Of a DNA stretch of 44,166 nt, positions 2,880-44,165 are shown one piece after another. Position 1 is the first letter of the stretch, and every line of letters begins with the position of its first letter. The notes under the pieces are model-generated. The model saw nothing but the letters and a program-made list of their open reading frames with translations. It ran no database searches and was not told the DNA's origin. The stretch lies in assembly GCA_039714095.1 (NCBI GenBank), contig JBDLJZ010000003.1, forward strand, positions 1 to 44,166. The letters run 5' to 3'. The position numbers were made by a program, and so were the translations under genes. Source of the DNA: Nanobdellota archaeon. GTDB lineage: Archaea; Nanobdellota; Nanobdellia; Pacearchaeales; GW2011-AR1.

Positions 2880-4367
2880 ATGAAAGGAAATATTTTATTT
2901 GGAGGTAAAGCAGGACAAGGTCCTAATTTTTTAACACATCTTTTAGGAGAGGCATTAACCAAACAAGGTTATTATGTTTTTTATTCAAGAGATTATGAAT
3001 CTTTAATAAGAGGGGGACACAATTTTAATGTCTTAACTTTTTCAGATGAGCCAGTTTATAGCAACGAAAAAAAAATTGATATCTTAGTTGCATTAGACGA
3101 AAACACAGAAAAAATTCATAGAGATAATCTTAAATCAGATGGAATTCTTTTAGACGGAAATCATTCAAATGTTTATTTTGCAGGAATGCTCTTTAAAATT
3201 TTAAATCTTGAATTTGAATTATTAGAAAATGAGTTAAAGACAAAAGATAAATTTGAAGAAAATATTTCTGAGGCAAAAAAAGGATATAATAACGCCACAA
3301 TAACAATTCAAATTCCAAAAACAAATACAAAAAAATTTAACTTCATCAACGGAAATCAGGGGATTGCATTTGGGGCAATTAAATCAGGGCTTGATGTTTA
3401 TTATGCTTATCCTATGACTCCTGCAACAACGATTTTAGCAGAACTTGCACAAAAGCAAGAGGAAAAGTTGTTTTTAACTTTAGAGCTTGAAAATGAAATT
3501 GCAGTAATAAACGCAGCAATTGGCTCAGCAATGACTGGAGCAAAATCAATGGTCGGAACTTCTGGAGGGGGTTTTGATTTAATGAGTGAAGCACTGAGTT
3601 TAACAGGAATAGCAGAAGTGCCAGTAGTTATTGCATTGATTCAAAGACCAGGACCAGGAACAGGCGTTGCAACTTACACAGGACAAGGAGATTTGCATTT
3701 AGCACGTCACGCAGGACACGGGGAATTCAACAGAATTGTAGTTGCACCAGGCGACCCAAAAGAAGCAGAAGAATTAACCTCACAAGCATTTTATTTTTCA
3801 CAAAAATTCAAAATTCCATCAATTATTTTAGGAGACAAACATATAGGAGAGAGTTTTTACACAATTGCAGGAGAACCAGAAATTACATCTTCAAAAAAAT
3901 CAACAAAACTCAAAAGATACAATAGTTATGAAACCGACGATAATGGAAGTGCAACAGAAAATGCAAAATTAATTATTGAAAATATCAACGAGCGCCAATC
4001 AAAAGCAAAAGATATAGAAAAAGAGGCTTCAAATTTTGAGCAATACAAAGTTTATGGAAATCAAAATTCAGAAAATGTTATTTTATCTTGGGGTTCTACA
4101 AAAGGTGTAATCATAGACGCTACAAAAGATTTAAATTGTAAATTTATTCAGATTTTATATATTGAACCTTTTCCAGAGGATTTGAAAAAACACTTAGAAA
4201 ATAAAAATATAATTTTAATTGAAAACAATGTAACCGCACCAATGGCAGACCTGATTGCAGAAAAAACTGGAATTTTTATTGAAGACAAAAATAAAATTCT
4301 GCGGTACGACGGACGTCCATTTTTATGTGATGAATTAAAAAAAGAAATTGCGGAGAGATTGAAATGA
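2880..4367 (+). CDS. korA: 2-oxoacid:ferredoxin oxidoreductase alpha subunit (gamma-alpha fusion)
   Basis: GGKAGQG, IRGGH, YPMTPAT, ENEIA, TSGGGF and QRPGPGTG motifs. Confidence 0.92.
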   Translation: MKGNILFGGKAGQGPNFLTHLLGEALTKQGYYVFYSRDYESLIRGGHNFNVLTFSDEPVYSNEKKIDILVALDENTEKIHRDNLKSDGILLDGNHSNVYFAGMLFKILNLEFELLENELKTKDKFEENISEAKKGYNNATITIQIPKTNTKKFNFINGNQGIAFGAIKSGLDVYYAYPMTPATTILAELAQKQEEKLFLTLELENEIAVINAAIGSAMTGAKSMVGTSGGGFDLMSEALSLTGIAEVPVVIALIQRPGPGTGVATYTGQGDLHLARHAGHGEFNRIVVAPGDPKEAEELTSQAFYFSQKFKIPSIILGDKHIGESFYTIAGEPEITSSKKSTKLKRYNSYETDDNGSATENAKLIIENINERQSKAKDIEKEASNFEQYKVYGNQNSENVILSWGSTKGVIIDATKDLNCKFIQILYIEPFPEDLKKHLENKNIILIENNVTAPMADLIAEKTGIFIEDKNKILRYDGRPFLCDELKKEIAERLK

Positions 4368-4414
4368 CTAACATATCAACTACAACAAAAAACACCTGGT
4401 GTCCAGGATGTTTT
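4364..4414 (+). repeat. duplicated 5' end of korB (copy of 5169-5219)
   Basis: 49/51 identical; both differences are synonymous (ACT/ACC, CCA/CCT). Its ATG overlaps the korA stop. Confidence 0.95.
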
Positions 4415-4466
4415 CAAATTCAAAAATCTTATAAACTTATGAATCTACATAATAATAATTTAAGTC

Positions 4467-4492
4467 CCCAGTATGACTTCGGGAATGCTGGG
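4467..4492 (+). promoter_or_regulatory. UUCG-loop hairpin in the 5' leader of the NYN gene
   Basis: CCCAGTAT-GAC-TTCG-GGA-ATGCTGGG lies between a TATA-like TTATAAA (4429) and the ATG at 4519. Confidence 0.65.
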
Positions 4493-4518
4493 TTTCCTTT
4501 TCTTTTGGGGGTTATACA

Positions 4519-5172
4519 ATGCCCAAAAAAGTGATTGTTTTTGTTGATGCAAATAATTGGTACCATAATGTAAAAAATTTGATAACTCCAAGCGAAGTAG
4601 ATATTAAAAAATTAGCAGAATTTCTTTGTAAAATTAAAAACTTTGAGTTAATAGATATTTATTGGTATGCTTCAAAACCAAGTATTCAAGACGGAGAAAA
4701 GATGTATTATTCTCATTTGTCATTTTTGAATCATTTAGAAAAAAGCGGAATTAAAATATTTTCAAGAAAATTACAAAGATTATCAAATAAAGAAATAAAA
4801 AAACAAAAATCTCAAAAAATAGATAGTTTAGATTTGTGTAAATCTTGCAAACCATTAATTGAATCTGTTTTTTTAGATTTGGCAGATTTAAAGAAAAATG
4901 AGAAGGGAGTTGATGTTTGGTGTGCAATTGATATGATTGATAAATCTTGCATTGAAAATAATTGTGATGCTTGCATTTTAATTTCGGGCGATGCAGATTT
5001 TGTCCCAGCATTAAATTTGATAAAAAAGAAAAATAAAGATATTTTAGTAGCGAGTAGTCCATTTGGATTTTCAAAAGAATTAAGAGATAATTTTGAGTAT
5101 TTTATTTTAAAAAAAGAAACTCTTATGAAGTGTTTAAGGCAATATAAAAATAATAAGAAAAATAAAAAATGA
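4519..5172 (+). CDS. NYN domain (LabA/DUF88, PIN-like) nuclease
   Basis: VFVDANN, EKGVD and ISGDADF acidic motifs. Confidence 0.9.
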   Translation: MPKKVIVFVDANNWYHNVKNLITPSEVDIKKLAEFLCKIKNFELIDIYWYASKPSIQDGEKMYYSHLSFLNHLEKSGIKIFSRKLQRLSNKEIKKQKSQKIDSLDLCKSCKPLIESVFLDLADLKKNEKGVDVWCAIDMIDKSCIENNCDACILISGDADFVPALNLIKKKNKDILVASSPFGFSKELRDNFEYFILKKETLMKCLRQYKNNKKNKK

Positions 5173-6002
5173 CTAACATATCAACCACAACAAAAAACAC
5201 CTGGTGTCCTGGATGTTTTAATTTCCAAATCTTCGCAGGAGTAAAAAGATTCCTTGAAGAAGAAATAGATTCAGGAAAAGACAAAGACGATTTTGCAATT
5301 GTTACAGGAATTGGATGTCACGCAAAAATGTTTGATTATTTAAACATAAATGGAATTAATTCTCTACACGGAAGGGTTTTGCCAACATGCTTGGGATTAA
5401 AAGTTGGAAATCCAAATTTAAATGTAATAGGTTTTTCAGGGGATGGAGATGCATATGCAGAAGGAATAGCACATACTGTTCACGCTGCAAGATACAATTC
5501 AGATTTTACTTATGTAATCCATAATAATCAAGTTTTCGCATTAACTTTAGGAGAACCAACCCCCACAACTGAATTAGGATTCAAAGATAAAACAACACCT
5601 TTTGGAGTAAATATAAATCCTCTAAACCCTCTAAAATTAATGCTTGCATCAGGCGCAACTTTTGTTGCAAGAGTTTTTGCCGACATAAACCAAGTTAAAG
5701 AAGTTCTAAAAGAAGCACAAAAACACAAAGGATTTTCATTTGTAGAAATAATCCAACCCTGCATTGTTTTTCACAATGACAAAGGTTATAGGGAAAAAAT
5801 TTATAGATTAGAGGATGATGACCACGATAAAACAAGTTTTGAAGAGGCTTGGAGAAAAGCAGACGAATTTAATTATAACACTGTAACTAAAATTCCAGTG
5901 GGGATTTTTTATCAAAAAGAAGCCGAGACTTTTGAGGATAAATTCGCAATGTTAAAAAAGTTCCAAGAAGATAAAACAAGTTGGAAAGATATTAAACGAT
6001 GA
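5169..6002 (+). CDS. korB: 2-oxoacid:ferredoxin oxidoreductase beta subunit
   Basis: WCPGC, GIGC, LHGR and TPP-binding GDGD...NN motifs. Confidence 0.93.
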   Translation: MTNISTTTKNTWCPGCFNFQIFAGVKRFLEEEIDSGKDKDDFAIVTGIGCHAKMFDYLNINGINSLHGRVLPTCLGLKVGNPNLNVIGFSGDGDAYAEGIAHTVHAARYNSDFTYVIHNNQVFALTLGEPTPTTELGFKDKTTPFGVNINPLNPLKLMLASGATFVARVFADINQVKEVLKEAQKHKGFSFVEIIQPCIVFHNDKGYREKIYRLEDDDHDKTSFEEAWRKADEFNYNTVTKIPVGIFYQKEAETFEDKFAMLKKFQEDKTSWKDIKR

Positions 6003-6065
6003 TTCTAAAAAAAACAAACATTTATAAATATTATTTAAATAATACTTTTAGAATATTAAAATAAT

Positions 6066-6362
6066 ATGGAGCCTTCAAAGATAATAGATAACTTAGAAAC
6101 AAAGAAAATATCTCTTAACATAGATGAGAGTATCTTAAAGATGACAGATGAGTTTGCAGAAATTTTAAATACAAATAGAACACAAGTTCTCTCTGCAGTT
6201 ATTCCAGCAGGAATAAAATCTCAAGTAAATTATAATATAAAAACTTGGGGGAAATTAAAGAAAGATAAAAATTATCAAGCAAAAAAAGAAAAGATAAACA
6301 ACCTCATTAGTAAAAATAAAACTTTCAAGGATAAGTGGAATTTGGATTTAATTCCTCAGTAA
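6066..6362 (+). CDS. small protein, possible ribbon-helix-helix DNA-binding domain
   Basis: KKISLNIDESILKMTDEFAE...NRTQVL resembles the CopG/RHH pattern; TATA-like sequence upstream. Confidence 0.5.
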   Translation: MEPSKIIDNLETKKISLNIDESILKMTDEFAEILNTNRTQVLSAVIPAGIKSQVNYNIKTWGKLKKDKNYQAKKEKINNLISKNKTFKDKWNLDLIPQ

Positions 6363-6980
6363 TCTCAATTCCCAAACAAACAACTCCTCAAAAAATAATT
6401 TTTTCTTTGCCAAGATTTCTATTTCATATCCTTTAAAATCAATTCCTTGTGTCAAAGAGCTTGTAAGCAAAAAAATCTTTCCATTTTCTTTCAAATATTT
6501 TTTTGCATCTTGCAAGAATTTATTTATTAACTCACTTCCTTTTTTTCCACCTGTTGTTGCTAATTTTGAATTTTCAGGTTCGTTTTTATCTTCAGGCAAA
6601 TAAGGAGGATTAAAAATAATAACATCAAAACGAGGAAACCCCTTGTTTTCCTCGTGCTCCTTTCTCGAAGCATTGAAGGGTGGCATCTTCTTGTGCAATC
6701 CGATGGATACCTCACAGTTGCTTCCTTCAACATTTTCAAATAAATTTGACACAAAACAATTAACTTCAAGTTCATTACATTTTTTAACAGCTTCAGAATT
6801 TATATCACAACAAAAAATATTTTCTTTTTTTGCACCCAATTCTAAAATATTTTTAATTTGAATTCCACTTCCACAACCAATTTCTAAAAATGTTCCAAGA
6901 ATATTTTCCTGAGTTATTTGTTTTTTCAATACATTCGCTAGTAAGTAAGAATCTTCTGCAGGTTCATAAATTTTTAACAT
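6348..6980 (-). CDS. HemK/Mtq2-family SAM methyltransferase with an in-frame insertion
   Basis: YEPAEDS, LEIGCGSG and FNPPY motifs; extra ~31 aa (GSNCEV...KGFPR) before FDVIIFNPPY. Confidence 0.88.
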   Translation of the reverse strand: MLKIYEPAEDSYLLANVLKKQITQENILGTFLEIGCGSGIQIKNILELGAKKENIFCCDINSEAVKKCNELEVNCFVSNLFENVEGSNCEVSIGLHKKMPPFNASRKEHEENKGFPRFDVIIFNPPYLPEDKNEPENSKLATTGGKKGSELINKFLQDAKKYLKENGKIFLLTSSLTQGIDFKGYEIEILAKKKLFFEELFVWELRLLRN

Positions 6981-7333
6981 TAGAAAATTTTATCCTTGAA
7001 TATAAAAAGACCAAATAAAATCCCAAAAAGAATAATTAAAATACCAATCAACAAAATAATTAATCCGATATTTTTCTTTAAAGATTTTGTAGCTTGAACA
7101 GTTTTTGGTTTTAATGGTTTAGCTTGATATTTTTTTTCAAGGGTTTGTGATTTTTCAACAACTTGTTTAGATTCTACAGGCTTGCCTCGCTGTTCATTAA
7201 AAACAATCTGCGTTGCTTCTTCAATTTCTTTTTTATCATAACCTGCATTGTAAAAACTTTGCATAGCATCTTTTAAACTTGACTTGTGCGCTATAGCTAT
7301 CCTAAGTCCTCCAAGAATTGACTCATTTACCAT
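6980..7333 (-). CDS. hypothetical protein with a C-terminal TM helix
   Basis: 117-aa ORF with a hydrophobic C-terminus; its stop overlaps the methyltransferase start. Confidence 0.75.
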   Translation of the reverse strand: MVNESILGGLRIAIAHKSSLKDAMQSFYNAGYDKKEIEEATQIVFNEQRGKPVESKQVVEKSQTLEKKYQAKPLKPKTVQATKSLKKNIGLIILLIGILIILFGILFGLFIFKDKIF

Positions 7334-7367
7334 AAATAATTTAAGAATTTAGAATTTAAAAAATATC

Positions 7368-8702
7368 TCAAAATTTCAAAACTTTTCCATTAGAACTCAA
7401 ATGAGATGTCTCGCCAAACTTATATCCAAATTCTGAAGCCAATTCAATAAATGGTGTTTCTTGTTCTAAAGATCCATGAGCTGGAATAACATGTTCTGGT
7501 TTTACTAATTCAATTAAATCTCGTAAATCTTCACGACTTCCATGCCCATGAACATGAACATTTGTTTGTAACTTAACTCCCATATTTCTTAATTTTTTAT
7601 CTAATCTTTCACGAAGCATTTGATTTGGTTGAACAGGAATAACACTTGAAGAAAAAATCAAATTATCTCCTTGTCTAAATTTAAACGGAGTTTCTCCCTT
7701 AACAATTCTATCCAATATTGAACCTTTTTCTGCTTGATGCCCTGTACAAACAACCAAATATTTTCCTCTTTCTTTTTCTATTCTTGCTAAAAAAGAATTT
7801 ATCTGTCTACGATATTTAATTAATTTAACTTTATTTTTGAAAGGACATTTCCCAACACTAATCGCACTATTTACATATTTATTCAAACTCCTTCCTAAAA
7901 AAATAATTTGTCTATTAGTTTTTTGAGCAAATTCCACAATATTTTTTAATCTTTCAATATGAGAAGAAAATGTTGTGACAAAAAGTGCCTTATCTTTTCC
8001 TCGTGCTTTTGAAAATGCTTCCTCCAATAAATGTTTTGCAATCGCCTCTCCACCAGGTTTTTTCTCAGTTCCAGAATAAAGAGCGTCTGCAACTAAAACT
8101 TTTACACCTTTTTTACTCAATTCTTTCATACGTTTATAATTAGGAGGATTACCCATTGTTGGATAATTATCAAACTTAAAATCTAACCCATAGAAAAAAA
8201 TTCCATCTTTTGTATGAAGAGCAATAAAAAAACACTGAATTGTTGAATGTGTTACATGAATAAATTCAACTTTCATATCTTTACTAATTTTATGAATAGA
8301 ATTATCTTGTACAGTTTTTTTCACATTTTTTATATTTATTTTATCATCTTCTAAAATTGAATCAATTACAGCCATTGTAAAAGGAGAAGCCATAATAGTT
8401 GCTTTTGGATATCTATGTGAAATATATGGAATTGCACCAATGTGATCTAAATGAGCATGCCCAATAACAATCGCCTTAACCTTATCTCTCCAACCCAATT
8501 TATCTAAAATTAAATCATTTGGAATAGCACCCGCATTCCTGAGTTTTCTCTCAGTATATTGTTGAAAAACCTCATTCTCTTGCAACTCAATAACAGAAGG
8601 CAAATGAAAACCAGCATCAAAAATAACAACATCTTCACCAACCTTAACAGCAGTCATATTCTTCCCAACTTCTTCATAACCTCCAACCGTGCATACTTCC
8701 AT
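7368..8702 (-). CDS. rnj: ribonuclease J (beta-CASP metallo-beta-lactamase)
   Basis: GGYEEVGKNM, HAHLDHIG, HVHGH and PAHG motifs. Confidence 0.9.
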   Translation of the reverse strand: MEVCTVGGYEEVGKNMTAVKVGEDVVIFDAGFHLPSVIELQENEVFQQYTERKLRNAGAIPNDLILDKLGWRDKVKAIVIGHAHLDHIGAIPYISHRYPKATIMASPFTMAVIDSILEDDKINIKNVKKTVQDNSIHKISKDMKVEFIHVTHSTIQCFFIALHTKDGIFFYGLDFKFDNYPTMGNPPNYKRMKELSKKGVKVLVADALYSGTEKKPGGEAIAKHLLEEAFSKARGKDKALFVTTFSSHIERLKNIVEFAQKTNRQIIFLGRSLNKYVNSAISVGKCPFKNKVKLIKYRRQINSFLARIEKERGKYLVVCTGHQAEKGSILDRIVKGETPFKFRQGDNLIFSSSVIPVQPNQMLRERLDKKLRNMGVKLQTNVHVHGHGSREDLRDLIELVKPEHVIPAHGSLEQETPFIELASEFGYKFGETSHLSSNGKVLKF

Positions 8703-8812
8703 TCAAAACAAAATCAAATCAAGTTTAAAAATGTTTTAGAATTTTTATAATCTAAAATAATAAAGATACAAATCTTAGAAAGGTTTAAAAAATTCTTTTT
8801 ATTATAAAATTT

Positions 8813-9772
8813 ATGAGAAGGGTGATAGGGATAGGCTTTTTAGTTTTTATTTTTTGTTTGTCATTTATTTCTTCAGTAATAACAAAAGAAGAGATCAAAG
8901 AAAAATTGGAACAGATTAATATTAATGATTTTAAAATATCTAAAGGGGATTTTGATAAATCAGTTGTTATTATTGGAAAGGCACCTAACTATTATAAAGA
9001 AGTTGTTACAAAGAAAGGGGAAATAGTTTGGTATGACATTTGTTACAAGGATAAATGGTTGGAGCATTATGATGAAACTACCGATATGACGATAAGGACT
9101 GATTATAATATGTTTTTTAATTTTCTTAAAAAATTTTTTGGAATAAGTAGTCCATGTAAAAAAATGTTTGAGAGTAGATTATCCGAGTATTCCCTGACCC
9201 CTGAAAATTATTTAAGCTTGGATTATCCCTTTGAAGAAGATATTTTTGAAGGAAAAGAGGTAATAAAATTTAAAGGTGAATATCCTGGTTCTATTGGGGC
9301 TGGAGATCCTTTAGAAGATTTTGACGCATATTATGACAGAAAAAATTTAATATTAGTAGCCAAAAAATTTTATTGTAATAATAATGATTTTTCAAAGTGT
9401 ATTTACAAAAATGGAACTATTGAATATTTTAATGAAATCAATCAAGGAGTTCAGGAAAGTGATTTTACTTCTCCCGAAATAAGTGAAATGACTAAAATTT
9501 GTGAGAAGGATCTAGAAAAAATTTCTAATTTAACTTTGGCATTAAATAATATTGAAGAAAGTTTGTGGGTAATTCAAGGATTAACAGAAAAAGAAAGAGT
9601 GGATAAAAAAACTAAAGAAATGCGTAAATTGACAAGAGAAGAATATAATCTTTTTATAGATCTTAAGCTACAATTTTGGGAAGCTGAATGTAAAGAAAAA
9701 GATGAAATATCTATTTGTAGTTATGCACAATATCTTGAGAGAAAGGATAGATTTAATGAATGCAAATTTTGA
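8813..9772 (+). CDS. hypothetical secreted protein
   Basis: 319-aa ORF with an N-terminal signal peptide. Confidence 0.75.
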   Translation: MRRVIGIGFLVFIFCLSFISSVITKEEIKEKLEQININDFKISKGDFDKSVVIIGKAPNYYKEVVTKKGEIVWYDICYKDKWLEHYDETTDMTIRTDYNMFFNFLKKFFGISSPCKKMFESRLSEYSLTPENYLSLDYPFEEDIFEGKEVIKFKGEYPGSIGAGDPLEDFDAYYDRKNLILVAKKFYCNNNDFSKCIYKNGTIEYFNEINQGVQESDFTSPEISEMTKICEKDLEKISNLTLALNNIEESLWVIQGLTEKERVDKKTKEMRKLTREEYNLFIDLKLQFWEAECKEKDEISICSYAQYLERKDRFNECKF

Positions 9773-9838
9773 TAGGAAAAAATTATTCTATTTTAATTTT
9801 ATAAAAATTTTTAATAACTCCAATTCCCAATTTTTATT

Positions 9839-10117
9839 ATGAAAAAGAGGAATATCTATATATCTATTATTATTGTAGTAGTTTTAATAATTATTTATTT
9901 CTTTATTCCTAAATCTCCAGAAATTCAAGAATGCCAAATTGATTCTGATTGTGTCCCAGTTTCTTGCTGCCATCCAGATTCGTGTGTTGCAAAAGAACAA
10001 AAACCAAACTGCGAAGGAGTTTTATGTTCAATGAGTTGCGAAAGTTTACTTGACTGCGGTGCAGGTTCCTGCGGATGCAAAGAAAATAAATGCATAATTA
10101 TATCTTCAAATGAATAG
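9839..10117 (+). CDS. small Cys-rich membrane-anchored protein
   Basis: N-terminal TM helix followed by CQIDSDCVPVSCCHPDSC and further Cys residues. Confidence 0.8.
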   Translation: MKKRNIYISIIIVVVLIIIYFFIPKSPEIQECQIDSDCVPVSCCHPDSCVAKEQKPNCEGVLCSMSCESLLDCGAGSCGCKENKCIIISSNE

Positions 10118-12902
10118 AAAAATTCCAACCCTTTTTTTAATATTAATTTTAACTATTTTTATTGTTAATTCTTATCAAACAAAAATAACACAAGAAGTAA
10201 TAGATGAATTAGAAAATAATAATGATGTAAGGGTGATAGTTGAATTAAAAGAACCTTCATTAGAAAAAGGAATTATTTTTGTCATAAAAAAAACCTCAGA
10301 TGAAATAAAATCAGAAAAAGAACAAGCCAAACAAGAAATAATAAATCAGGTTAGCAATGAAAAAATAAAACATGTTTTTGATAAGAGTATTGCACTTGAA
10401 ATTTCTGAAAAAAAAATAAAACAATTAGAGAAAAATTCAAATATTAAGTCAATTAAAATTGATAAACCTTTTTTCGCGTTTTTGCAAGATTCTGTCCCAT
10501 TAATTAATGCAAGCACAACTTGGCCAATACAACTAAGCAGTTTTAATATCACTGGGATAAATGAAACAGTTTGTATAATTGATACAGGGGTTGATAGTTC
10601 TCATACAGATCTTCAAAATCAAGTGGTTGGAGAATATTGTTTTTGCTCTGCAACAGAGGGTGTGTATCCAAATTGTTGCCCAGATACAACAAATGAGGAT
10701 AATAACGCAACAGATAATAACGGGCACGGAACACATGTAGCAGGAATTGTTGCAGCATTTGGAGAAATTAATGGAGTTGCAATAGGAGCAAAAATTGCAA
10801 TGGTGAAAGTTTTAAATTCAACAGGTTCAGGATATAGTTCTGACACTGCCGCCGCAATTGAATGGTGTACAAATAATGTGGAGCTTTACAATATTTCAGT
10901 TATAAGTTTGAGTTTAGGAGGAGGCCAATATAATGATTATTGCGACGGAGAAGATGCTACAACCACTAATATAATAAATACAGCTGTTGGAAAAAATATT
11001 TCTGTAATTGTCGCAACAGGGAATATAGATGCGGCTTATCCAAATAAATTAGCGGGAATTGCTTCTCCAGCTTGCATAAAAAATTCAACAAGAATATCTG
11101 CAACAGATAAACTTGATAGTCCTGCTTTTTATGCATTTAGAAATAAAAATTTTACAGATATTTTTTTTGCTCCTGGAACAAGTATTAATTCAACTTCCAC
11201 AATTGCCCTTGATGGTTGTGATCTTTATGGAGATTATATGTCTTGTTCAGGAACCTCAATGTCTGCCCCCCATGTCGCAGGAGCTTTCGCAATAATAAGA
11301 CAATTCTTTAGATTACAAAATAACAAAATTCCGACTTCATCTGAAATTAAAATTCTACTAAATAACACAGGCAAATTAATAGACGACAGTTCTGGAAGCG
11401 GACTAAATTTTACAAGAATAGATGTTTACTCGGCTTTACTTTCAATTGATTCTTCACCTCCAACAGTAAATTTAATTTCCCCAGAAGATAATGAATTTAA
11501 TTTCACACAAAATTTAACTTTCAAATGTTCAGCAAATGATATCCTATTGTCAAATATAACACTCTATGTCTGGAATTCCACAAGCATTTATAATACTACT
11601 TTAAGAGATGTTGCTGGTACAAATGCAGAGGCAGAATTTAATTTAACAAATATTCCTGAAGACGAATACCAATGGAACTGTCTTGCCTATGACCATAATA
11701 ATAATTTTTCTTTTGCTTCTTCTAATTATACTCTAACTTTAAAAAAAATAAACACAATTCTAAATTCACCAACAAACAACACTTTCACAAATCAAGAAAC
11801 ACAAACATTCAACTGCTCTGCACAAACAATTTCTACAAAAGAATTAACAAACATAACTTTTTTTATTTGGAACTCCACAGAATTAATTTACAACACAACA
11901 CAAAATATCTCTGGCACACAAAATTCAACAACATTCCAGCACAATTTAACATCTCCAATAGAATATCATTGGAATTGCCTAACTTATAATAATGAATCCA
12001 ATTTTACTTTTGCAACAAATAATAATACTCTAACATATGACATCACTAAACCAAATGTAACATCAGTTCCAAATTTTCCAACAAACGAAACATCAAACTC
12101 TGCAACAAAATCTTTTTACTATAATGCAACTGATAATTACGGAATTAATAATTGCAGTCTGATTGTGGATAATGTAGTGAGTTTGACAGATTCTTTAATA
12201 AATATTTCTCTAACACAGAATTTTACTAAGATATTTTTACCTGGAACTTACAATTGGCAAATAAATTGCACAGACTTAGCAAATAATATAGAAAATTCTT
12301 CAACCCAGAGTTTTATAATCACTGCTCCAGCTGTAGTAACTTCTTCAGAGGGCAGAGGTAGTGGAAGCTCTTCAGTCAAAACATTTGTCGCATCGCCTGA
12401 ACAAACTTCAACAGGGTACACAAAAGAGTTAGCAAAAAATGACAAAATTAAATTTACAATTCCCAACGAATTATCTGAACAACACACAATCACAACAAAT
12501 TACGTAGGGATAGATTACGCAGACATAACCATTCAAAGCAATCCAATAAATTTTGTTTTATATATAGGAGAAGAAAAAAAATTAAACCTAACTTCCTCAG
12601 AATATTATAATCTTTATATTAAATTAAACTCAATAAAAAATTAAAAGGCGAATCTGACAATTCAAACTATTTATGAGCAGATGATTCAACCCTCCTCTGA
12701 AATTCTGAAAAATAAAACTATAACTGGAAAAACTATTGAAGAAAAAGATAAGCCAGAAATTTTCAAAACAGAATCTTTTAAGAATTTTTTAATCATAATA
12801 CTTATAATCCTTCTTGTCATTATATTAGTAATAAAAAAAAGAAAGAAAAGAAAGGAAGAAAAGAAAAATGAAACCCTTAAAACCAAGCGCACGAGAAAAT
12901 AA
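10110..12902 (+). CDS. S8 subtilisin-like protease with Ig-like repeats; one in-frame TAA (12642-12644) separates the C-terminal TM anchor
   Basis: Catalytic triad motifs IIDTG, HGTHVAG, SGTSMSAPHVAG. The frame continues after the TAA (KANLTIQTIYEQMIQ...) into ORF 12681-12902. Confidence 0.88.
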
Positions 12903-13227
12903 AAGATATCTTTTAGTAGAAGGAAAAAATCTTAAACAAAATATTGAAAAAGCAATTTTAGAATTTATAGGAGTTTTAGGAATGTCACAAGTTGGATTAA
13001 GTTTTATAGAAACACACTCACGAGTGTATACCCACAAGGGGCACGAGAACCTGCAAGCAGGCCCCGAAAAATCTTCAAATAAGATTTCTACAAAGGGTAA
13101 AAATAATTCTACAATAATTTGCATAAACCGAGAAATGGTTGATTCTGTTCGTGCATCACTTTGTGTCTTCCCCGATAAAATAGAAGTAAAAAAAGTTAGT
13201 GGGACTTTGAAAAGTTTAAGAAAATAA
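12868..13227 (+). CDS. pop5: RNase P protein Pop5/Rpp14 with an in-frame insertion
   Basis: PSARENKRYL and VSGTLKSLR ends; located upstream of psmA as in the archaeal exosome superoperon. Confidence 0.8.
   Translation: MKPLKPSARENKRYLLVEGKNLKQNIEKAILEFIGVLGMSQVGLSFIETHSRVYTHKGHENLQAGPEKSSNKISTKGKNNSTIICINREMVDSVRASLCVFPDKIEVKKVSGTLKSLRK
13012..13097 (+). repeat. composite palindromic element inserted in frame in pop5
   Basis: Hairpins ACACTC-AC-GAGTGT, CCTGC-AA-GCAGG and AAATCTT-CAAAT-AAGATTT; the 3' part matches 29067-29100. Confidence 0.75.
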
Positions 13228-13246
13228 TTTTTTAATTTTTAATAGT

Positions 13247-14290
13247 TTATTCCAACTTTTCCAATTCGTTTAATAATTCTTCCACAAGATTTTCTTTCCC
13301 CACATTTCTAATTACTTTTCCATTCTTGAAAAGTATGCCTCCGTTTTCTCTTCCTGCGATTCCTATATCTGCCATTTTCGCTTCGTCTGCATTTACAAAG
13401 CAACCTAGAATTCCAACTTTTATTGGCTTATCGATTTTTGTTAATTTTTCTTCAACTTCTTTTGCAATTTTTATTACATCTATTTTTGCTCTTGCGCATG
13501 TAGGGCAAGAAATCAATATAGCCCCCTTTCTTAATTTAAGTGATTTTAAAATAGAATATCCTGCAAAAATTTCTTTTTTAGGGTCAGCACTTAATGAAAC
13601 TCTAATAGTATCCCCAATACCCTCTAATAACAATGCACCAATACCAATACTTGATTTAATTATTCCTCCTTTTTCTGTCCCTGATTCTGTAATTCCTAGG
13701 TGTAAAGGATAATTTGATTTTTCGGAAAATAATTTATTAGCTCCTATAGTCTCAAAAATATCTGAAGATTTTAAAGAAACAATAATATTATGAAAATTAA
13801 GATCTTCGCAAATTTTAATAGTTTCTAAAGCAGATTCAACTATGGCTTTAGGGCTTGAACCAAATTTTTCCATAATTTTTTTTGGCAAAGAACCTATATT
13901 AATTCCAATTCTTATTGGAATCTTTTTATTTTTTGCCTCTTTAATTATTATTTTTAATTTATCTTCTGAGATATTTCCTGGATTGATTCTTATCTTATCT
14001 ATACCCTGTTTTATACATTCTAATGCTAAAGCATAATCATAATGAATATCTGTAACAAGAGGGATATTTATTTGTTTTTTAATTTTATTTATTTGTTTTG
14101 CAGATTCAATATCTGGAACAGCGATTCTAATGATCTCACAACCTACTGACTCTAATTCAAGAATTTGTTTAACTGTAGAATCTACATCACTAGTTTTTGT
14201 ATTACACATTGATTGAACTCTTATAGGATTATTTCCTCCAATTTTGAGATTACCAATTTTTACTTCTTTTGTTTTTTTTCTTTGAATCAT
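13247..14290 (-). CDS. ispG: (E)-4-hydroxy-3-methylbut-2-enyl-diphosphate synthase
   Basis: IRVQSM, DIHY, RINPGN, LHLGITE, GDTIRVSL motifs; Fe-S ligands in CPTC and GCFVN. Confidence 0.95.
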   Translation of the reverse strand: MIQRKKTKEVKIGNLKIGGNNPIRVQSMCNTKTSDVDSTVKQILELESVGCEIIRIAVPDIESAKQINKIKKQINIPLVTDIHYDYALALECIKQGIDKIRINPGNISEDKLKIIIKEAKNKKIPIRIGINIGSLPKKIMEKFGSSPKAIVESALETIKICEDLNFHNIIVSLKSSDIFETIGANKLFSEKSNYPLHLGITESGTEKGGIIKSSIGIGALLLEGIGDTIRVSLSADPKKEIFAGYSILKSLKLRKGAILISCPTCARAKIDVIKIAKEVEEKLTKIDKPIKVGILGCFVNADEAKMADIGIAGRENGGILFKNGKVIRNVGKENLVEELLNELEKLE

Positions 14291-14349
14291 GTATCTAATT
14301 TAATATAAGTCTTTAAATTATTTATTCAGTTTCATCACCATTAAAAATC

Positions 14350-14388
14350 AAAAAGGTTTCAGGAACTTTGAAAAGTTTAAGAAAATAA
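14350..14388 (+). repeat. second copy of the pop5 3' end
   Basis: Encodes KKVSGTLKSLRK* like 13189-13227, with synonymous codon differences and a 24-bp exact core. Confidence 0.93.
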
Positions 14389-14424
14389 GTGAATATTTAA
14401 AAGGAGTGAGTCGTTTAGAGTTTT

Positions 14425-14922
14425 ATGAAAGAGGGAGCAGGAGAACTATTAAAAACAGTCGGCAAGACTAATGGAGTTTTTTATTGGTTATCTTTGGTGA
14501 TATCTACATTTCTGATTATAAATATTGTTTTTGATCCTTTTGAATTTTTAATAGCATTTGGAACGGGAATTTTTTCTTCAATAGCACTGATATTCTATTT
14601 ATTTATGCCTGATTCGTTTATTTTCCAAATAGATTCATTTTTATATATGATCTTTTTAAGTATAGCTTCGTACCCTTTCTTATTTTATTTTTTATATAAA
14701 AAAAGCAAGAAAAAAATTTATCCTATTCATTTCTTATGGTTCATAAATTTTGTTTTATTAGCAATAGCTACTATAACTTGGACTCTTTATGTAATTTATG
14801 GATGTGTATTTAAAGGTGAAGGTAGTATGGGATGTGTATTGCCGATTGTAACTATCCCCATAATTATCATTTCAAGTCTTGTCGCATACTTCTTTTATTA
14901 CAAATCTGAAGGACTTAAATAA
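14425..14922 (+). CDS. hypothetical multi-pass membrane protein
   Basis: 165-aa ORF with about 5 hydrophobic segments. Confidence 0.75.
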   Translation: MKEGAGELLKTVGKTNGVFYWLSLVISTFLIINIVFDPFEFLIAFGTGIFSSIALIFYLFMPDSFIFQIDSFLYMIFLSIASYPFLFYFLYKKSKKKIYPIHFLWFINFVLLAIATITWTLYVIYGCVFKGEGSMGCVLPIVTIPIIIISSLVAYFFYYKSEGLK

Positions 14923-14934
14923 ATCTGTGAAATG

Positions 14935-14965
14935 TTGAAAAGTTTAAGAAAATAATTTTTTAATT
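14935..14965 (+). repeat. third copy of the pop5 3' end plus downstream T-tract
   Basis: 31 bp identical to 13207-13237 (TTGAAAAGTTTAAGAAAATAATTTTTTAATT). Confidence 0.88.
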
Positions 14966-15441
14966 CTTGTAACAAAATCAATAAAAATTGTGAAATAGAT
15001 TAATAAAATAAACACTTTCATTATATTGTATTTAAATAAAACTTCAGAAATTATCTTTATATCTGGGAAAATAAAAAAATAAAATATTAATGCTAAAATT
15101 AACCACAAAAACGAACTATAAATTGAAACAAGTCCTTTATAATTATAACTCCAATTATAATCCCAAAGTTTTATACCATTTTTTAAGAAAATAATTCCAA
15201 TTACAAATTCAAGTAAAGTTATAGAAATCAAGAACAATAAAATTCTATAAAATAAATTTATATCTAAATATGAAATTAACAGAACAATAACAGCCCCAAA
15301 TCCATAAATTGGCAAATAAATTCCTTTTAAAAATCCTCTATTTGTAAATTGCTTATTAATAATTCCAGTTCTTATTGTTTCAAATATCCAACCAAAAAAA
15401 CTTCCAATAAGAAAAACCAAAATCATTTCTTGAATTATCAT
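14944..15441 (-). CDS. putative ABC transporter permease-like membrane protein (CmpB/DUF1113-like)
   Basis: FLIGSFFGWIFE, NRGFLKG.YLPIYGFG and LWDY motifs. Confidence 0.75.
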   Translation of the reverse strand: MIIQEMILVFLIGSFFGWIFETIRTGIINKQFTNRGFLKGIYLPIYGFGAVIVLLISYLDINLFYRILLFLISITLLEFVIGIIFLKNGIKLWDYNWSYNYKGLVSIYSSFLWLILALIFYFFIFPDIKIISEVLFKYNIMKVFILLIYFTIFIDFVTRIKKLFS

Positions 15442-15573: not shown

Positions 15574-16296
15574 ATGGATATGCCAATAGACATACAGCAC
15601 CAACAGATGGGTTATGACAGAACTGCAACAATGTTCTCTCCAGAGGGACATTTGCTTCAAGTTGAATATGCAGAAAAAACAGTGAGATTAGGCCCACTAA
15701 GCATTGGAATGGTTTGCACAGACGGAGTTTTTATAATCGCTGATAAAAGAATAAAAGATAAATTAATCGTACAAAAATCTGCAATAAAAATCCACGAAGT
15801 TGATTCTCATATTATATCAAGTGTTGCAGGAATTGTTTCAGATTCAAGAGTTTTAATAGAAAAAGCACAAGTCTTAGCACAACAGCACAGATTAACTTAC
15901 GACTCCCCAGCACCAACAGAATCAATAACAAAAGATATAGCTGACATAAAACAATATTTTAGCCAATATGGAGGAGCACGCCCTTTTGGTGTTTCATTAA
16001 TGATAGCAGGAATAACAAATAAAAAACCCGAACTTTTCATAAGCGATGTTACAGGAAGCTATTTATCTTACCACGCAAACGCAATCGGAGAAAACGACGA
16101 AAAAGCAAAAGAACTTTTAAGGGAACACTATAAACAAACTTTAACAATAAAAGAAGGAATAAAACTTACATTAGATATTTTCAAAGAAATTAAAGGAGAC
16201 GATTTTCATATAAGTAAACTTGAACTTGCTTATATTAATAAGGAAGATGAAAAATTAAAAAGATTAGAAGGCAATAAAATAGAAGAATTAAAATGA
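15574..16296 (+). CDS. psmA: proteasome alpha subunit
   Basis: GYDRTATMFSPEGHLLQVEYA and RPFGVS motifs. Confidence 0.96.
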   Translation: MDMPIDIQHQQMGYDRTATMFSPEGHLLQVEYAEKTVRLGPLSIGMVCTDGVFIIADKRIKDKLIVQKSAIKIHEVDSHIISSVAGIVSDSRVLIEKAQVLAQQHRLTYDSPAPTESITKDIADIKQYFSQYGGARPFGVSLMIAGITNKKPELFISDVTGSYLSYHANAIGENDEKAKELLREHYKQTLTIKEGIKLTLDIFKEIKGDDFHISKLELAYINKEDEKLKRLEGNKIEELK

Positions 16297-16499
16297 CAAA
16301 ATCAATAAAAAAAGATTACATAGTGGTAGGGTTAGGATATGATGGAAACGAGGGAGTTTTAATTATGCAAAATCCAAATGAAAATCAATTACCTTCCTAT
16401 GGGGTTGGAGTTACGGCTCAAAGATTATATTCAAAAAAACCAAAAAATAGTGATATTCAAAAAGCAGTTGAAGAATTTTTTAGTGGGGGAAATTTATAA
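16293..16499 (+). CDS. hypothetical protein inserted in the superoperon
   Basis: 68 aa; ATGA overlap with the psmA stop. Confidence 0.65.
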   Translation: MTKSIKKDYIVVGLGYDGNEGVLIMQNPNENQLPSYGVGVTAQRLYSKKPKNSDIQKAVEEFFSGGNL

Positions 16500-16500
16500 A

Positions 16501-16800
16501 ATGACAAGAGATAAATTCACACTAATTACAACAAAAACAAAAGAAGGAGATATTAAGCATAGCTATGCTGGATATAGAAATGTCAACGCCTGCGAGAGTG
16601 AGCCTATAATGGAAAATTTTGGAAATGTCTATGACGGATTAGCAAGACAATATGAACATAAGCATACAGAATTATTATCGTCTTATAATGAAGGAAAAAT
16701 AATAACTAAATTTAAAGGTCCAAAAATTGGAGGAAATCTTTTGCAAAGATGCTTCGGAGCAATAGTTGCAGAAGTTCAGAGGATTCAAGACGGAGTATAA
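16501..16800 (+). CDS. hypothetical protein inserted in the superoperon
   Basis: Start reassigned to 16501 (TAAAATG junction); 99 aa. Confidence 0.65.
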   Translation: MTRDKFTLITTKTKEGDIKHSYAGYRNVNACESEPIMENFGNVYDGLARQYEHKHTELLSSYNEGKIITKFKGPKIGGNLLQRCFGAIVAEVQRIQDGV

Positions 16801-16801
16801 A

Positions 16802-17476: not shown

Positions 17477-17477
17477 A

Positions 17478-17846
17478 ATGGAACAAGAGATAAAAACACA
17501 GTACTTAGAAAACAAAGAAGACTTAGGAGCACTTTTTGAAGATAAAGATTTTGTTAATGTTGCATTAAAAGATGGATATCAGGACCCAGCATTATTTTGT
17601 AAGTGGGAGACTGATATAGATGATTGGTATAATGGATTAACAATCTTAAGAAAAAATGGGGATAATTTTCATTCTTATTGGATTAGCAATAGATATCTTT
17701 CAATAAAAGATGGAGTTATTTCTGAAGATACAACTCCTCATGTTGGAGGCTTCCAATTATCAAGTAAGACAAGTTTTGATTATAACTCATTAAAAGATAT
17801 GTATACGAATGCAGAAAAATTAAACACTCTTGCTGAAGGAAATTAA
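17478..17846 (+). CDS. hypothetical protein between SBDS and rrp4
   Basis: 122-aa ORF tightly spaced on both sides. Confidence 0.75.
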   Translation: MEQEIKTQYLENKEDLGALFEDKDFVNVALKDGYQDPALFCKWETDIDDWYNGLTILRKNGDNFHSYWISNRYLSIKDGVISEDTTPHVGGFQLSSKTSFDYNSLKDMYTNAEKLNTLAEGN

Positions 17847-17848
17847 AA

Positions 17849-18514: not shown

Positions 18515-18515
18515 A

Positions 18516-19226: not shown

Positions 19227-19227
19227 G

Positions 19228-19401
19228 ATGAATAATAAATGTGAGTATTACGAAAGATGTAGAAGAGAAAATAAAGAATTAAAAAATAATCTTATTAGTG
19301 AGGAGATCTCTAAAAGATTAAAAAATCCAATATCTTATGAATGTCTTTTTAATCAAGAATATATTGCTGAATGCCCGGTAGTAGAGGAGATTAAAAAATA
19401 A
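19228..19401 (+). CDS. small 4-Cys hypothetical protein between rrp41 and rrp42
   Basis: 57 aa; GGAGGAG upstream; TAAGATG and TAAAATG junctions. Confidence 0.6.
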   Translation: MNNKCEYYERCRRENKELKNNLISEEISKRLKNPISYECLFNQEYIAECPVVEEIKK

Positions 19402-35696: not shown

Positions 35697-35724
35697 ATGA
35701 TTTTATTTTATCTTGGAGATTTAT

Positions 35725-40401: not shown

Positions 40402-40404
40402 TTT

Positions 40405-41550: not shown

Positions 41551-41625
41551 TTAAAAAAGAGGAAAAGAAGGGTTAAAAATTAACCGCCCAAAAACCTTTT
41601 TAACCTATTACTCTCTCTTTCTTTT

Positions 41626-43452
41626 ATGAAACAAATCAGACAACCAATTGTGACTGTCTGCGGACATGTAGACCATGGAAAAACTTCAATTTTAGATTGT
41701 CTTAGAAGCAGCTGTGTCCAGAAAGGCGAAGCAGGAGGAATCACGCAAAAAATATCTTTTACTTCTTATCCAATGAATCAACTCAAAAACGCCTGCCCTT
41801 TAATTGAAAAATTAGGAACAAAATTAAACATTCCAGGATTTTTACTAATTGACACTCCTGGGCACGCAGCATTTACAAATCTAAGAAAACGTGGCGGTTC
41901 TCTTGCTGACTTAGCAGTTCTTGTTATAGATATTAATGATGGGATAAAACCACAAACAGCAGAAGTAATTCAAATTCTAAAACACAATAAAACACCTTTC
42001 ATAATTGCATTAAATAAGATAGATAATATTTCTGGGTGGAAGCCTCCGCAACAAAAAATTGGAGGTTATGAAGAAGCATCAATCTCTTTAAAAGAAAGCA
42101 TTGAATCACAACCACAAAACGTAAAACAAATTTTCAACGAAAGATATATGACAATAATTGGAGCATTAAACAGTCATGGATTTGACGCTGATTTATATTA
42201 TAATATTGATGATTTCACAAAAAAAATTGCTTTAGTTCCAACTTCAGCACAAACAAAAGAAGGCATACCTGAATTAATAATGATGCTTTGCGGAATTTCA
42301 CAAAAATATTTAGCAGATAAATTAGAACTCGGAAAAGATGCAAAAGGGGTAATGCTTGAAATCAAAAAAGAAAAATCTACCAATTATATTGAGGCAATTC
42401 TTTATGATGGAGAACTTAAAAAAACAGATCAAATTGCAGTAGCGTCTTTTGATGGCGAGCGATTTCGTGGTAAGGGCAAACATAGTTCATCAATCTCCTG
42501 TGCGGGGTCGCGAGTTGAACCAATAATAACAAAAATAAGAATCTTAGAAGAAATAAAACCTCTTTGTGCAAAATTTTCTCCAAAAGATAAAGTTACTGCT
42601 TCAACTGGATTAAGAATGCAACTTGTAGAAAAAAAAGAAATTCTTCCAGGAATGCCATTTGAAATTTATAAAAATAATTTAAAAGAAATAAAAGAAAAAT
42701 TCACAAAAGAAATTTCAGAAAACATTCAAACACAAAAACAAGGAATCATCGCAAAAGCAGATTCTTTAGGGAGTTTAGAAGCACTTTTAGTTTTATTAAA
42801 AGAAAATAATATTTCAGTAGTTAAAGTAGGAATTGGAAACATAAATAAAAAAGATATAATTTCAGCAAAGGCAAATCTTGACATAAATGAATTAGATTCA
42901 ATAATTATTGGATTTAATACTTCAATTGATGAAGACGCAAAAGAAATTCAAGGAAACATAAAAGTTTTAACAGAAGAAGTAATTTACAAATTAATTGAAA
43001 ATTTAGTTGAGTGGAGAAAAGAAAAAACAAACGAAATAGAAAAGAAAAGATTAATGGGATTAGCAACAATCACAAAATTAAAAGTTTTACATCAATATGT
43101 TTTTAGAAACACAAGTCCAGCAATTTTCGGAGTTAAAATTGAAGGGGGAAAATTAATTTCTGGACAAAATTTAGTTGATGAAAAAGGAGAAAAAGTAGGG
43201 AAAATAAAAAATATTCAATCAGAACAAAAATCTGTAAACCAAGCAACAGAAGGAATGGAAGTTGCAATATCAATTCCAGGAATAAATTTTGAAAGAGCAA
43301 TGAAAGACAGAAATAATATTTATTCAGATTTAGGAGAATCACAATTTAGAAATTTCAAAAAGAATAAAGATTTGCTCTCGCAAAACGAAATTAAAATTTT
43401 GCAGGAAATTGCAGAAATTAAGCGACAGAAAAAAGCAGATTGGGGAAATTAA
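41626..43452 (+). CDS. infB: translation initiation factor aIF5B/IF2
   Basis: GHVDHGKT, EAGGITQ, DTPGH, NKID and GSLEAL motifs. Confidence 0.96.
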   Translation: MKQIRQPIVTVCGHVDHGKTSILDCLRSSCVQKGEAGGITQKISFTSYPMNQLKNACPLIEKLGTKLNIPGFLLIDTPGHAAFTNLRKRGGSLADLAVLVIDINDGIKPQTAEVIQILKHNKTPFIIALNKIDNISGWKPPQQKIGGYEEASISLKESIESQPQNVKQIFNERYMTIIGALNSHGFDADLYYNIDDFTKKIALVPTSAQTKEGIPELIMMLCGISQKYLADKLELGKDAKGVMLEIKKEKSTNYIEAILYDGELKKTDQIAVASFDGERFRGKGKHSSSISCAGSRVEPIITKIRILEEIKPLCAKFSPKDKVTASTGLRMQLVEKKEILPGMPFEIYKNNLKEIKEKFTKEISENIQTQKQGIIAKADSLGSLEALLVLLKENNISVVKVGIGNINKKDIISAKANLDINELDSIIIGFNTSIDEDAKEIQGNIKVLTEEVIYKLIENLVEWRKEKTNEIEKKRLMGLATITKLKVLHQYVFRNTSPAIFGVKIEGGKLISGQNLVDEKGEKVGKIKNIQSEQKSVNQATEGMEVAISIPGINFERAMKDRNNIYSDLGESQFRNFKKNKDLLSQNEIKILQEIAEIKRQKKADWGN

Positions 43453-43453
43453 G

Positions 43454-43765
43454 ATGAATTTAGAAGAATTAAAAAGAAAGCTAAAACAATATAATAAAAA
43501 AGATATAATTGTGACAAATCACGCAGAATTACAAGCTATTGTTAGAGAAATTAATTTAGATGAAGTAAAGGAAAACATAGTAGATCCGGAAAAATTAGTT
43601 TACATTAAAAAAGAATCAACGCAAAAGGAAAATGAAGAAAAATATGATTGTTATTTCGCATACTCAAAGCAGTTGTATCACAGGTATATAATCGTTATAA
43701 ATGCAAGGATTATTATAGTAACAATAATTAAAATAAATAGGAATTGGCAAAAAGCAATAGGTTAA
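43454..43765 (+). CDS. DUF4258-like putative toxin
   Basis: IIVTNHAELQ...R.I...IIVTI pattern; start reassigned to the coupled ATG at 43454; paired with a DUF2283-like gene. Confidence 0.6.
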   Translation: MNLEELKRKLKQYNKKDIIVTNHAELQAIVREINLDEVKENIVDPEKLVYIKKESTQKENEEKYDCYFAYSKQLYHRYIIVINARIIIVTIIKINRNWQKAIG

Positions 43766-43766
43766 A

Positions 43767-44108
43767 ATGGAAAATTTTAAATTTAGTTATGATTCTGAAA
43801 ATGATGATTTATTTATGTATTTAGAAGGAAAAAAATCTAAAGGAGCAGTCGAATTAGGAAACTTTATTTTGGATTTTGATAATAAAGGAAATTTGGTAGC
43901 CATGCAAATTCTTAATGTTTCAGAAATCATTTCGAAGATTCTTTCAAAAATAATAAAAATTTCTGAGTTAAAAGAAGTAAAAATGAACATTATTAATTTT
44001 AGAAATATGGATGCTATAAGATTTTATATTTCAGATGGAATTAATGAAGAAACTACAAATATTTTAATACCGCACATTAAAGAAAAAAGTCCTGTTTTGA
44101 GTCATTAA
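43767..44108 (+). CDS. DUF2283-family protein (putative antitoxin)
   Basis: YDSENDDLFMY and ILDFDNKGNLVAMQILNVS motifs. Confidence 0.8.
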   Translation: MENFKFSYDSENDDLFMYLEGKKSKGAVELGNFILDFDNKGNLVAMQILNVSEIISKILSKIIKISELKEVKMNIINFRNMDAIRFYISDGINEETTNILIPHIKEKSPVLSH

Positions 44109-44165
44109 ATTTTGCAGGAAATTGCAGAAATTAAGCGACAGAAAAAAGATGGATGGGAAAATTAG
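44107..44165 (+). repeat. second copy of the infB 3' end
   Basis: 42 bp identical to 43394-43435, then DGWEN* versus ADWGN* with the stop at the same codon. Confidence 0.95.

Follow-up and report, generated by a model that had tools for sequence, protein, structure and literature searches.

Duplicated gene termini around accessory genes in a Nanobdellota archaeon: candidate scars of homology-anchored DNA acquisition

How do accessory genes come to lie between two copies of the end of a core gene? This question is raised by a 44,166-nt stretch of DNA from a Nanobdellota archaeon (GCA_039714095.1, contig JBDLJZ010000003.1), referred to here as the window. The window is the entire contig C3 of a metagenome-assembled genome (MAG) of 756,630 bases, 59 contigs and ~29% G+C, labelled G000. 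At three places in it, the start or the end of a core gene (korB, pop5 and the infB-type gene for aIF5B) is present again as an orphan fragment, and other genes sit between the copies. A preliminary description of this DNA took these loci for a candidate recombinase-free cassette system. We lean towards reading the duplicated termini as scars of homology-anchored acquisition of foreign DNA by terminus displacement, an explanation that we consider rather probable though far from certain.

The first of these loci (4362-5229; all features are on the forward strand unless stated otherwise) lies in a stretch in which Pfam identifies a POR/KOR alpha-gamma gene followed by a gene for a thiamine pyrophosphate (TPP) beta subunit. 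The stop codon of the korA-type subunit gene (2880..4367; POR_N and POR domains) overlaps the ATG of an orphan copy of the korB 5' end (4362..4424), found by sequence inspection and BLAST. This orphan start opens a 56-aa open reading frame (ORF; 4364-4534) that extends into the cassette behind it. The cassette consists of a TATA-like box (4428..4436), whose position upstream of the gene is kept elsewhere (60 loci compared), a conserved leader hairpin (4462..4492) recognized from locus comparison and covariation, and a gene encoding an NYN-domain nuclease (4519..5172). The protein scores 68.8 bits against the NYN profile (PF01936; E 9e-19), for which the curated cut-off is 24.2, and it matches the PADLOC family HEC-09 (E 2.5e-12). 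Its TGA stop overlaps the ATG of the intact, Pfam-identified korB (5169-6002), where the other repeat copy is situated (5167..5229). The BLAST core of the repeat is 53 nt long with 96% identity, and both of the two codons that differ do so synonymously. A possible 7-nt match is found at the boundary of the orphan, where the AT-rich sequence makes a chance match likely.

The second locus (12868-15441) contains pop5 (Rpp14/Pop5; 12868..13227), intact and identified by a weak Pfam match (E 5e-4). Its 3' end is present in three copies, which align in full over 13182-13240, 14343-14401 and 14910-14968. Copy 1 (13182..13240) is attached to the gene and has Ser/Gly codons that are not like those of G001, a genome of the same genus used for comparison. 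Copy 2 (14343..14388) is an orphan with G001-like codons that ends at the stop codon, and copy 3 (14932..14968) is a short orphan with downstream spacer. Copies 1 and 2 have the last 14 codons in common, and copies 1 and 3 share 31 exact nt. Between the copies lie a GcpE/IspG gene (13247..14290, minus strand; Pfam and NCBIfam equivalog), which is absent from this site in G001, and a gene for a 165-aa membrane protein (14425..14922; sequence and G001 comparison). The three copies had been described as separating three genes. The copies are indeed present, but only these two genes are inserted: the minus-strand gene at 14944-15441 is directly after pop5 in G001 and is therefore a resident, not cargo. 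Likewise, the statement that every codon difference at korB and pop5 is synonymous holds for korB but not for pop5, where three differences are synonymous and one is not (V/I).

Two further features of this locus are worth recording. An 87-nt GC-rich element (13013-13098) is inserted in frame within pop5 and is absent from the G001 pop5; its relatives occur on several contigs of G000 and G001, some of them also within ORFs. The IspG (HMBPP synthase) encoded at 13247-14290 is of the bacterial type, scores above the NCBIfam equivalog cut-off and stands as lone cargo in an archaeon of the DPANN group.

The third locus (41626-44164) begins with the intact gene for aIF5B (41626..43452; Pfam), which ends in the first repeat copy (43394..43451), the one with a G001-like tail. 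Two cargo genes follow, encoding a 103-aa protein (43454..43765) that profile searches assigned to no known family and a DUF2283 protein (43767..44108; Pfam E 5.7e-10). The second, orphan copy of the aIF5B 3' end (44107..44164) stops 2 nt short of the end of the contig. The two copies agree throughout their first 42 nt, and 8 differences then fall within the last 16 nt, with the frame kept and the stop codon in the same position, as had been reported.

Are such repeats a general property of this genome? We compared the genome with itself by BLAST and collected direct-repeat high-scoring segment pairs of 24-400 nt spaced 0.3-8 kb apart. The real genome yielded 43 pairs, and three second-order Markov surrogates yielded 0, 0 and 0, so the terminus repeats are real and non-random. 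The three repeat sets of the window are thus borne out by their coordinates, by the surrogates and by the identities of the genes. When the 43 pairs were sorted by genome-wide copy number and gene context, 14 two-copy pairs were found to flank at least one gene, and 12 of these 14 come to within 12 nt of the start or stop of a gene. When the pairs were placed at random, 4.5 on average touched a terminus, and not one of 5000 trials reached 12. A genome-wide search for copies of gene termini, which the preliminary description had proposed as a check, therefore agrees with it. The repeats are 24-240 nt long and 86-100% identical, and at least 10 of the sequences are mutually unrelated. With such variable lengths, copies that are not identical and no terminal inverted repeats, they do not look like the target-site duplications of a transposon, which also had been claimed.

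Outside the window, the host genes are those for Dph2 (3' end), SMC (3' end, nested as at pop5), DUF357 (3' end), MCM (5' end and upstream sequence, 240 nt identical), a polysaccharide flippase (5' end) and a few unnamed proteins. An intact gene together with an orphan terminus in direct repeat is seen at korB, pop5 (three copies), aIF5B, Dph2, SMC, MCM and DUF357. The cargo is mostly accessory or defence-like: NYN (PADLOC HEC-09), Fic (SoFic-like), a nucleotidyltransferase, a HEPN-like protein, DUF2283, the bacterial-type IspG, and a DUF4325 and HATPase pair that resembles the N-terminal part of DrmA. Homologues of the Fic cargo occur, with 67-85% identity, in eight genomes outside the genus, two of which belong to other families (L248-L255); for aIF5B, identity with the family's other genera does not exceed 79%. 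Because Fic identities reach this range while aIF5B tops out at 79%, a recent lateral transfer of Fic is suggested. In G001 (C21:1729-4490, L127), homologues of the 165-aa pop5 cargo and of the Fic cargo of SMC adjoin each other; a T-rich intergenic motif lies between them, recurs, and is also repeated on contig C55 of G000.

Not every repeat pair qualified as a scar. Eleven pairs lie within one gene or between adjacent paralogues, and several others belong to multi-copy interspersed GC-rich elements. The pair at C4 5061/7873 (87 nt) is part of a ~110-nt interspersed element with many copies in G001, where the gene order is the same. The pairs at C8 3510/4668, 21070/23618 and 23639/26669 all represent one palindromic promoter-like motif upstream of the genes for aIF1A, DUF424, L15e and DUF2238. 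This palindrome surrounds the TATA box of these genes (C8:3510-3562, 4668-4720, 21070-21117, 23618-23665 and 26669-26815) and is probably a common promoter or regulator site. The ~110-nt elements form families that resemble miniature inverted-repeat transposable elements (C8:8803-8917, C4:7868-7986 and others), with more than 20 copies in G001.

If the intervening genes were acquired, relatives might have empty or differently filled sites, and the preliminary description had pointed to these as a test. Both kinds exist in G001, which is collinear with the window contig over ~21 kb at 79-92% identity. At pop5, SMC and Dph2, the repeat is single-copy in G001 and there is no cargo; at the korA|korB junction (a 282-aa membrane protein), at MCM and downstream of aIF5B, G001 carries other cargo. 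Among 15 relatives from the family, 8 have between one and three different genes at the korA|korB junction, all co-oriented and mostly translationally coupled, and 7 have an unfilled junction. The gene for ribosomal protein S6e comes directly after aIF5B in 6 relatives and after one to three ORFs in 10, and it is absent from the fetched aIF5B flank in 8. The terminus-repeat pattern also recurs in other DPANN assemblies.

Across the 21 kb common to G000 and G001, 10 of 11 indels are found at gene boundaries, the eleventh being the 87-nt in-frame pop5 element. Because of this distribution, gene-sized flux at gene boundaries is taken to be intense in this genus, with the long duplicates as its most legible cases. 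Several of the boundary indels consist of exactly one ORF placed at a stop/start junction with only 7-12 nt duplicated; in AT-rich sequence, shared stop/start strings of this kind are likely by chance. One such ORF-precise insertion relative to G001, with 7-9 nt duplicated, spans 17481..17845, and similar ones are seen at 6001-6370, 8704-9805, 16308-16797 and 19231-19392. In a proteasome/exosome-type operon (16293-19401), comparison with G001 shows lone small ORFs placed exactly at stop/start junctions, with one reverse case in G001, and the inserted ORFs start at the former ATG of the downstream gene. As for the rest of the window, an archaeal rRNA operon is present, an Rfam scan returned rRNA and tRNA matches only, and an 858-aa ORF (22026-24602) contains ~10 diverged copies of a 78-nt (26-residue) glycine-rich repeat.

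Could these duplications have been created by the assembly of a mixed-strain metagenome? That the genome is a MAG of 59 contigs and that the second aIF5B copy lies at a contig end speak for this. However, the junction sequences are unique and the repeat copies differ from one another, the same architecture appears in assemblies of other studies, and the congener G001 has clean, single-copy empty sites. In addition, all sampled words of positions 4000-13999 were present in one public sequencing run, which is possibly the source sample and hence not independent. We regard an assembly artefact as extremely improbable.

We then have to ask where the copies came from. They could be diverged alleles brought in from elsewhere, or the terminus could have been duplicated locally during insertion, for example by a long staggered break or by replication template switching, and then have diverged within the lineage. 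Several identical pairs (240 nt on C8; 31 nt in pop5 copies 1 and 3) are what a local duplication would leave, and by a rough estimate a bias of mismatches towards third codon positions is partly obtainable from selection on the intact copy alone. Such a bias exists: in 20 framed pairs, 33 of 57 mismatches are at third codon positions (p = 1.2e-4 against one third), which is the outcome that the preliminary description, having proposed this check, anticipated. Other differences do not fit local duplication well. At aIF5B they are clustered (0/42, then 8/16) with the stop position kept, and the polX duplicates differ by 5-7 synonymous and 2-3 non-synonymous codons. At pop5, the orphan agrees with G001 at 5 sites and the attached copy at 2, including an AGT/TCA serine switch that lies on the attached, intact copy while the orphan matches G001. 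Local duplication as the sole source of the copies is thus, in our estimation, very unlikely.

The outgroup adds to this comparison at other loci. In the Dph2 coding core, the orphan agrees with G001 at 2 of 2 sites; in the aIF5B tail, it is the attached copy that is G001-like at 8 sites and the orphan at 0; at korB and at SMC, each copy matches at one site. Because one copy is the more G001-like at pop5, Dph2 and aIF5B, at least some of the copies derive from diverged alleles. A diversity-generating retroelement was set aside as the source of the differences, as these are not adenine-specific.

The main rival to terminus displacement is that tyrosine or serine recombinases, acting in trans, integrated the cargo site-specifically. 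In that case, the repeats would be attL and attR attachment (att) sites that mimic gene ends, and the cargo would be decayed, integrase-less units similar to cis-mobilizable elements (CIMEs), stacked by accretion. Elements that bear att sites, lack recombination genes and lie in tandem at a target gene are well documented (PMC7563491), and the pop5 and SMC arrays resemble such accretion. The exact repeat cores of 31-42 nt are also in keeping with att sites. As the preliminary description had stated, the window has no integrase gene: profile searches found no PF00589 or PF00239 match on its contig, or beside any scar. The search for an integrase elsewhere, which it had proposed, was positive, with four matches to PF00589 and two to PF00239, all on other contigs. 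One of the four PF00589 matches is probably Xer. Because recombinase genes thus exist elsewhere in the genome, the label "recombinase-free" is unproven and remains an inference. Profile searches of the genome for PF07282 (TnpB) and PF01797 (Y1 transposase) gave no match; other transposase families were not searched.

Several points speak against integration. At least ten unrelated repeat sequences of 24-240 nt far outnumber the recombinases, and because of these ten unrelated sequences we disfavour this explanation. Moreover, the integrase genes have no repeats around them within 60 kb and no adjoining tRNA gene, and the duplicates at NYN cassettes stem from a wide variety of host genes in different genomes. 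The cassette ends have no attC-like structure, terminal inverted repeats or other standout inverted repeat, and their weak AT-rich inverted matches are 70-89% complementary. Overall, site-specific integration seems quite unlikely. On contig C16 (3298-5016), a gene similar to tyrosine recombinases adjoins a serine recombinase gene, with no flanking repeats or tRNA; this pair may mark a mobile element.

The NYN cassette at korB raises a question of its own, namely whether the cargo moves itself. We collected NYN homologues with 50-67% identity at 66 genome loci and 80 metagenome loci (kept out of 106); among the repeat pairs around NYN, those of L082 and L220 were dropped as NYN-NYN paralogue matches, and L186 and L188 are apparently one sequence filed twice. 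These relatives come from assemblies whose titles name Woesearchaeota, Pacearchaeota and Nanoarchaeota, which together with the archaeal rRNA operon places the genome among DPANN archaea of the Woese/Pacearchaeota type. At 60/60 inspected loci, a TATA-like box, a hairpin and a GGAGG-type site precede the NYN ORF in this order. The hairpin has 10 predicted pairs, 5 of them with compensatory changes and none broken in 43 sequences, and in the window scan it fell below the gathering score of every Rfam family. A second hairpin is found upstream of NYN in some loci (L046-L111, L167-L246 set). Since a TATA box lies between the orphan and the hairpin, a reading of the two as an RNA-guided device was set aside.

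The NYN ORF terminates just past a conserved C-terminal motif, and in 29 of 41 loci a co-oriented gene has its start either overlapping the NYN stop or at most 5 nt away from it. NYN is surrounded by direct repeats (24-121 nt) at 13/65 loci from genomes and 12/59 eligible loci from metagenomes (25/124 together), often as copies of the start of the downstream gene. Repeat pairs around genes other than NYN were seen at only 7 loci in each sample. Of the 26 flanked loci, the window included, 15 have the right copy directly against the NYN stop, and an ORF that is at least 60 aa long or runs off the contig starts at the right copy in 11 loci. The downstream genes flanked in this way include those for PolX, an HsdM-like protein and a glycosyltransferase, as named from their N-termini. 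Neither korA nor korB is near NYN at any of the 66 genome loci; three metagenome loci do have korA or korB nearby, and two metagenome contigs of an unrelated lineage have NYN immediately in front of korB, together with a ~18-nt orphan korB start. For the control family Fic, repeats surround 4 of 25 eligible loci and seem to be GC-rich intergenic elements rather than gene starts, which makes it a weak control either way. From these data, NYN is a discrete, widespread and frequently relocated cassette. Among the papers listed in literature searches, none links NYN cassettes to terminus scars.

For korB alone, it is therefore possible to imagine the NYN cassette as an autonomous selfish element whose nuclease promotes its copying beside start codons in a homing-like manner, with the orphan as a by-product or decoy. 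The conserved make-up of the unit, its position at stop/start junctions, the excess of repeats around it and its reappearance at korB with a short orphan start all fit this idea. On the other hand, NYN domains are annotated as RNases and are not known to cleave DNA. The targets are many and unrelated, which is a poor fit to a sequence-specific endonuclease, and the same scars surround cargo that contains no nuclease (GcpE, membrane proteins, DUF2283, Fic). Furthermore, HEC-09 is a candidate defence family, and frequent transfer of defence genes would explain the link to recent scars equally well. We consider the selfish-element explanation of korB distinctly doubtful. A bolder proposal would make the gene termini of essential genes in some Woesearchaeota and Pacearchaeota into landing pads for homology-anchored, integrase-independent capture of defence and accessory genes, with the NYN unit (promoter, covarying leader hairpin and nuclease) as an active selfish cassette carrying a decoy copy of its target start; this we think unlikely, and we mention it as a speculation.

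How, then, could terminus displacement have produced the scars? DNA would enter the cell from a related lineage that has an accessory gene immediately next to the orthologous core gene. The orthologous stretch would pair with the resident gene by homologous recombination (the genome encodes RadA), and the non-homologous end would join illegitimately inside or at the terminus of the resident gene. Equivalently, one crossover would integrate a circle bearing the cargo as well as a duplicate of the gene end. Where hardly any intergenic space exists, as in this genome, selection would allow only products with a whole essential gene to survive, and for this reason the outcome would always be an intact gene, cargo and an orphan of 25-240 nt. 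Repeated events could build arrays, as at pop5 and SMC, and ordinary double crossovers could later move a whole array while the orphans decay. Terminus scars do not require a dedicated enzyme or "system". A dedicated cassette system is left unsupported: the same topology is a known by-product of terminus displacement or homology-facilitated illegitimate recombination, and it is rare in another genus of the family, where a 390-kb contig of G024 has one candidate.

Several observations count against terminus displacement. No korB orphan is present at the filled korA|korB junctions of 8 relatives, and no aIF5B orphan in 23 relatives. With only a single candidate scar in the G024 contig as well, the pattern is uneven among relatives. 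The donor search ended with nearest NYN relatives of 66-67% identity in the genome and metagenome collections, and thus with no donor. Some pairs are 100% identical over 31-240 nt, which fits recent events or gene conversion and is uninformative on origin. By our rough estimate, the decay of a duplicate formed in situ, next to a copy under selection, could give ~46% third-position mismatches, and the 58% seen here is only marginally higher; for this reason the bias is suggestive, not decisive. Polarity is mixed too, with the attached copy foreign-like at pop5 and Dph2 and the orphan foreign-like at aIF5B. The homology-anchored capture that had been put forward is largely right as a process, but its further element, an incoming end that displaces the resident end, is unproven as a fixed rule. 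Finally, homology-facilitated illegitimate recombination in archaea did not appear in the titles and abstract openings of the papers listed in literature searches. The present pattern in DPANN archaea was likewise absent from the papers listed.

Why would such scars matter? How tiny, compact DPANN genomes gain genes is poorly understood. The scars would be a readable record of mostly defence-like genes entering beside essential genes by recombination with diverged relatives, with no obvious mobile-element enzyme. If general, they could serve to follow and date gene flow among uncultivated archaea, and they would carry the displacement model beyond bacterial toxin loci, to housekeeping genes. 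Independently of this, the NYN cassette and its leader hairpin are a concrete candidate for a new small defence or selfish module.

Is this, then, a new kind of system or a familiar one in other surroundings? CIMEs are similar in that direct repeats mark the end of a host gene that stays intact, and in that their units stack in tandem and have no recombinase of their own, but they need a site-specific integrase and a defined att core (PMC7563491). Here the repeats are unrelated and variable, no att core is shared, and no recombinase gene is linked to, within or beside the elements. Integrons likewise stack small promoter-less or single-gene units at one place, but here there is no integrase on the contig and no attI- or attC-like structure, and the repeats copy the neighbouring gene, not a cassette-borne site. 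In fungal mitochondria, a mobile endonuclease ORF at atp6 reportedly brings a foreign copy of the host gene end and leaves the old terminus as a remnant. The shared elements would be a nuclease gene beside the host gene, a fused foreign terminus and a remnant of the old one; however, the fungal case belongs to an organelle, its enzyme is of the GIY-YIG or LAGLIDADG kind and it affects 3' ends, and the NYN duplicates are 5' ends.

The closest parallels come from bacterial toxin loci. At Rhs loci, a laterally acquired end displaces the incumbent, and homologous recombination with circular intermediates has been proposed (Jackson et al. 2009, PMC2935791). There too, orphan fragments come after an intact gene; they are direct repeats of its end, vary in length and each have different downstream DNA. 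Rhs loci differ in that they are bacterial polymorphic-toxin loci that exchange their own toxic tip together with an immunity gene (PMC2935791). At the archaeal loci, the gene end is conserved, with both copies encoding the same residues, duplicates involve 5' as well as 3' ends, housekeeping genes serve as hosts and the cargo consists of separate genes (NYN, GcpE, DUF2283). In the effector-immunity arrays of the type VI secretion system (T6SS), displacement occurs by homology-facilitated illegitimate recombination (Kirchberger et al. 2017, PMC5361080). One homologous anchor and one illegitimate joint, stepwise growth of the array and later spread by ordinary homologous recombination are all described for these arrays (PMC5361080). 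The hosts in that case are naturally competent bacteria with one specialized locus type, and the repeated remnant is not the focus there; our scars are spread over ~10 unrelated loci of a single 757-kb genome. Terminus displacement is thus known from Rhs, contact-dependent inhibition (CDI) and T6SS loci, and on our reading it is met here on archaeal housekeeping genes with defence-like cargo. The process is of a familiar kind, seen in new surroundings, and does not amount to a novel dedicated system.

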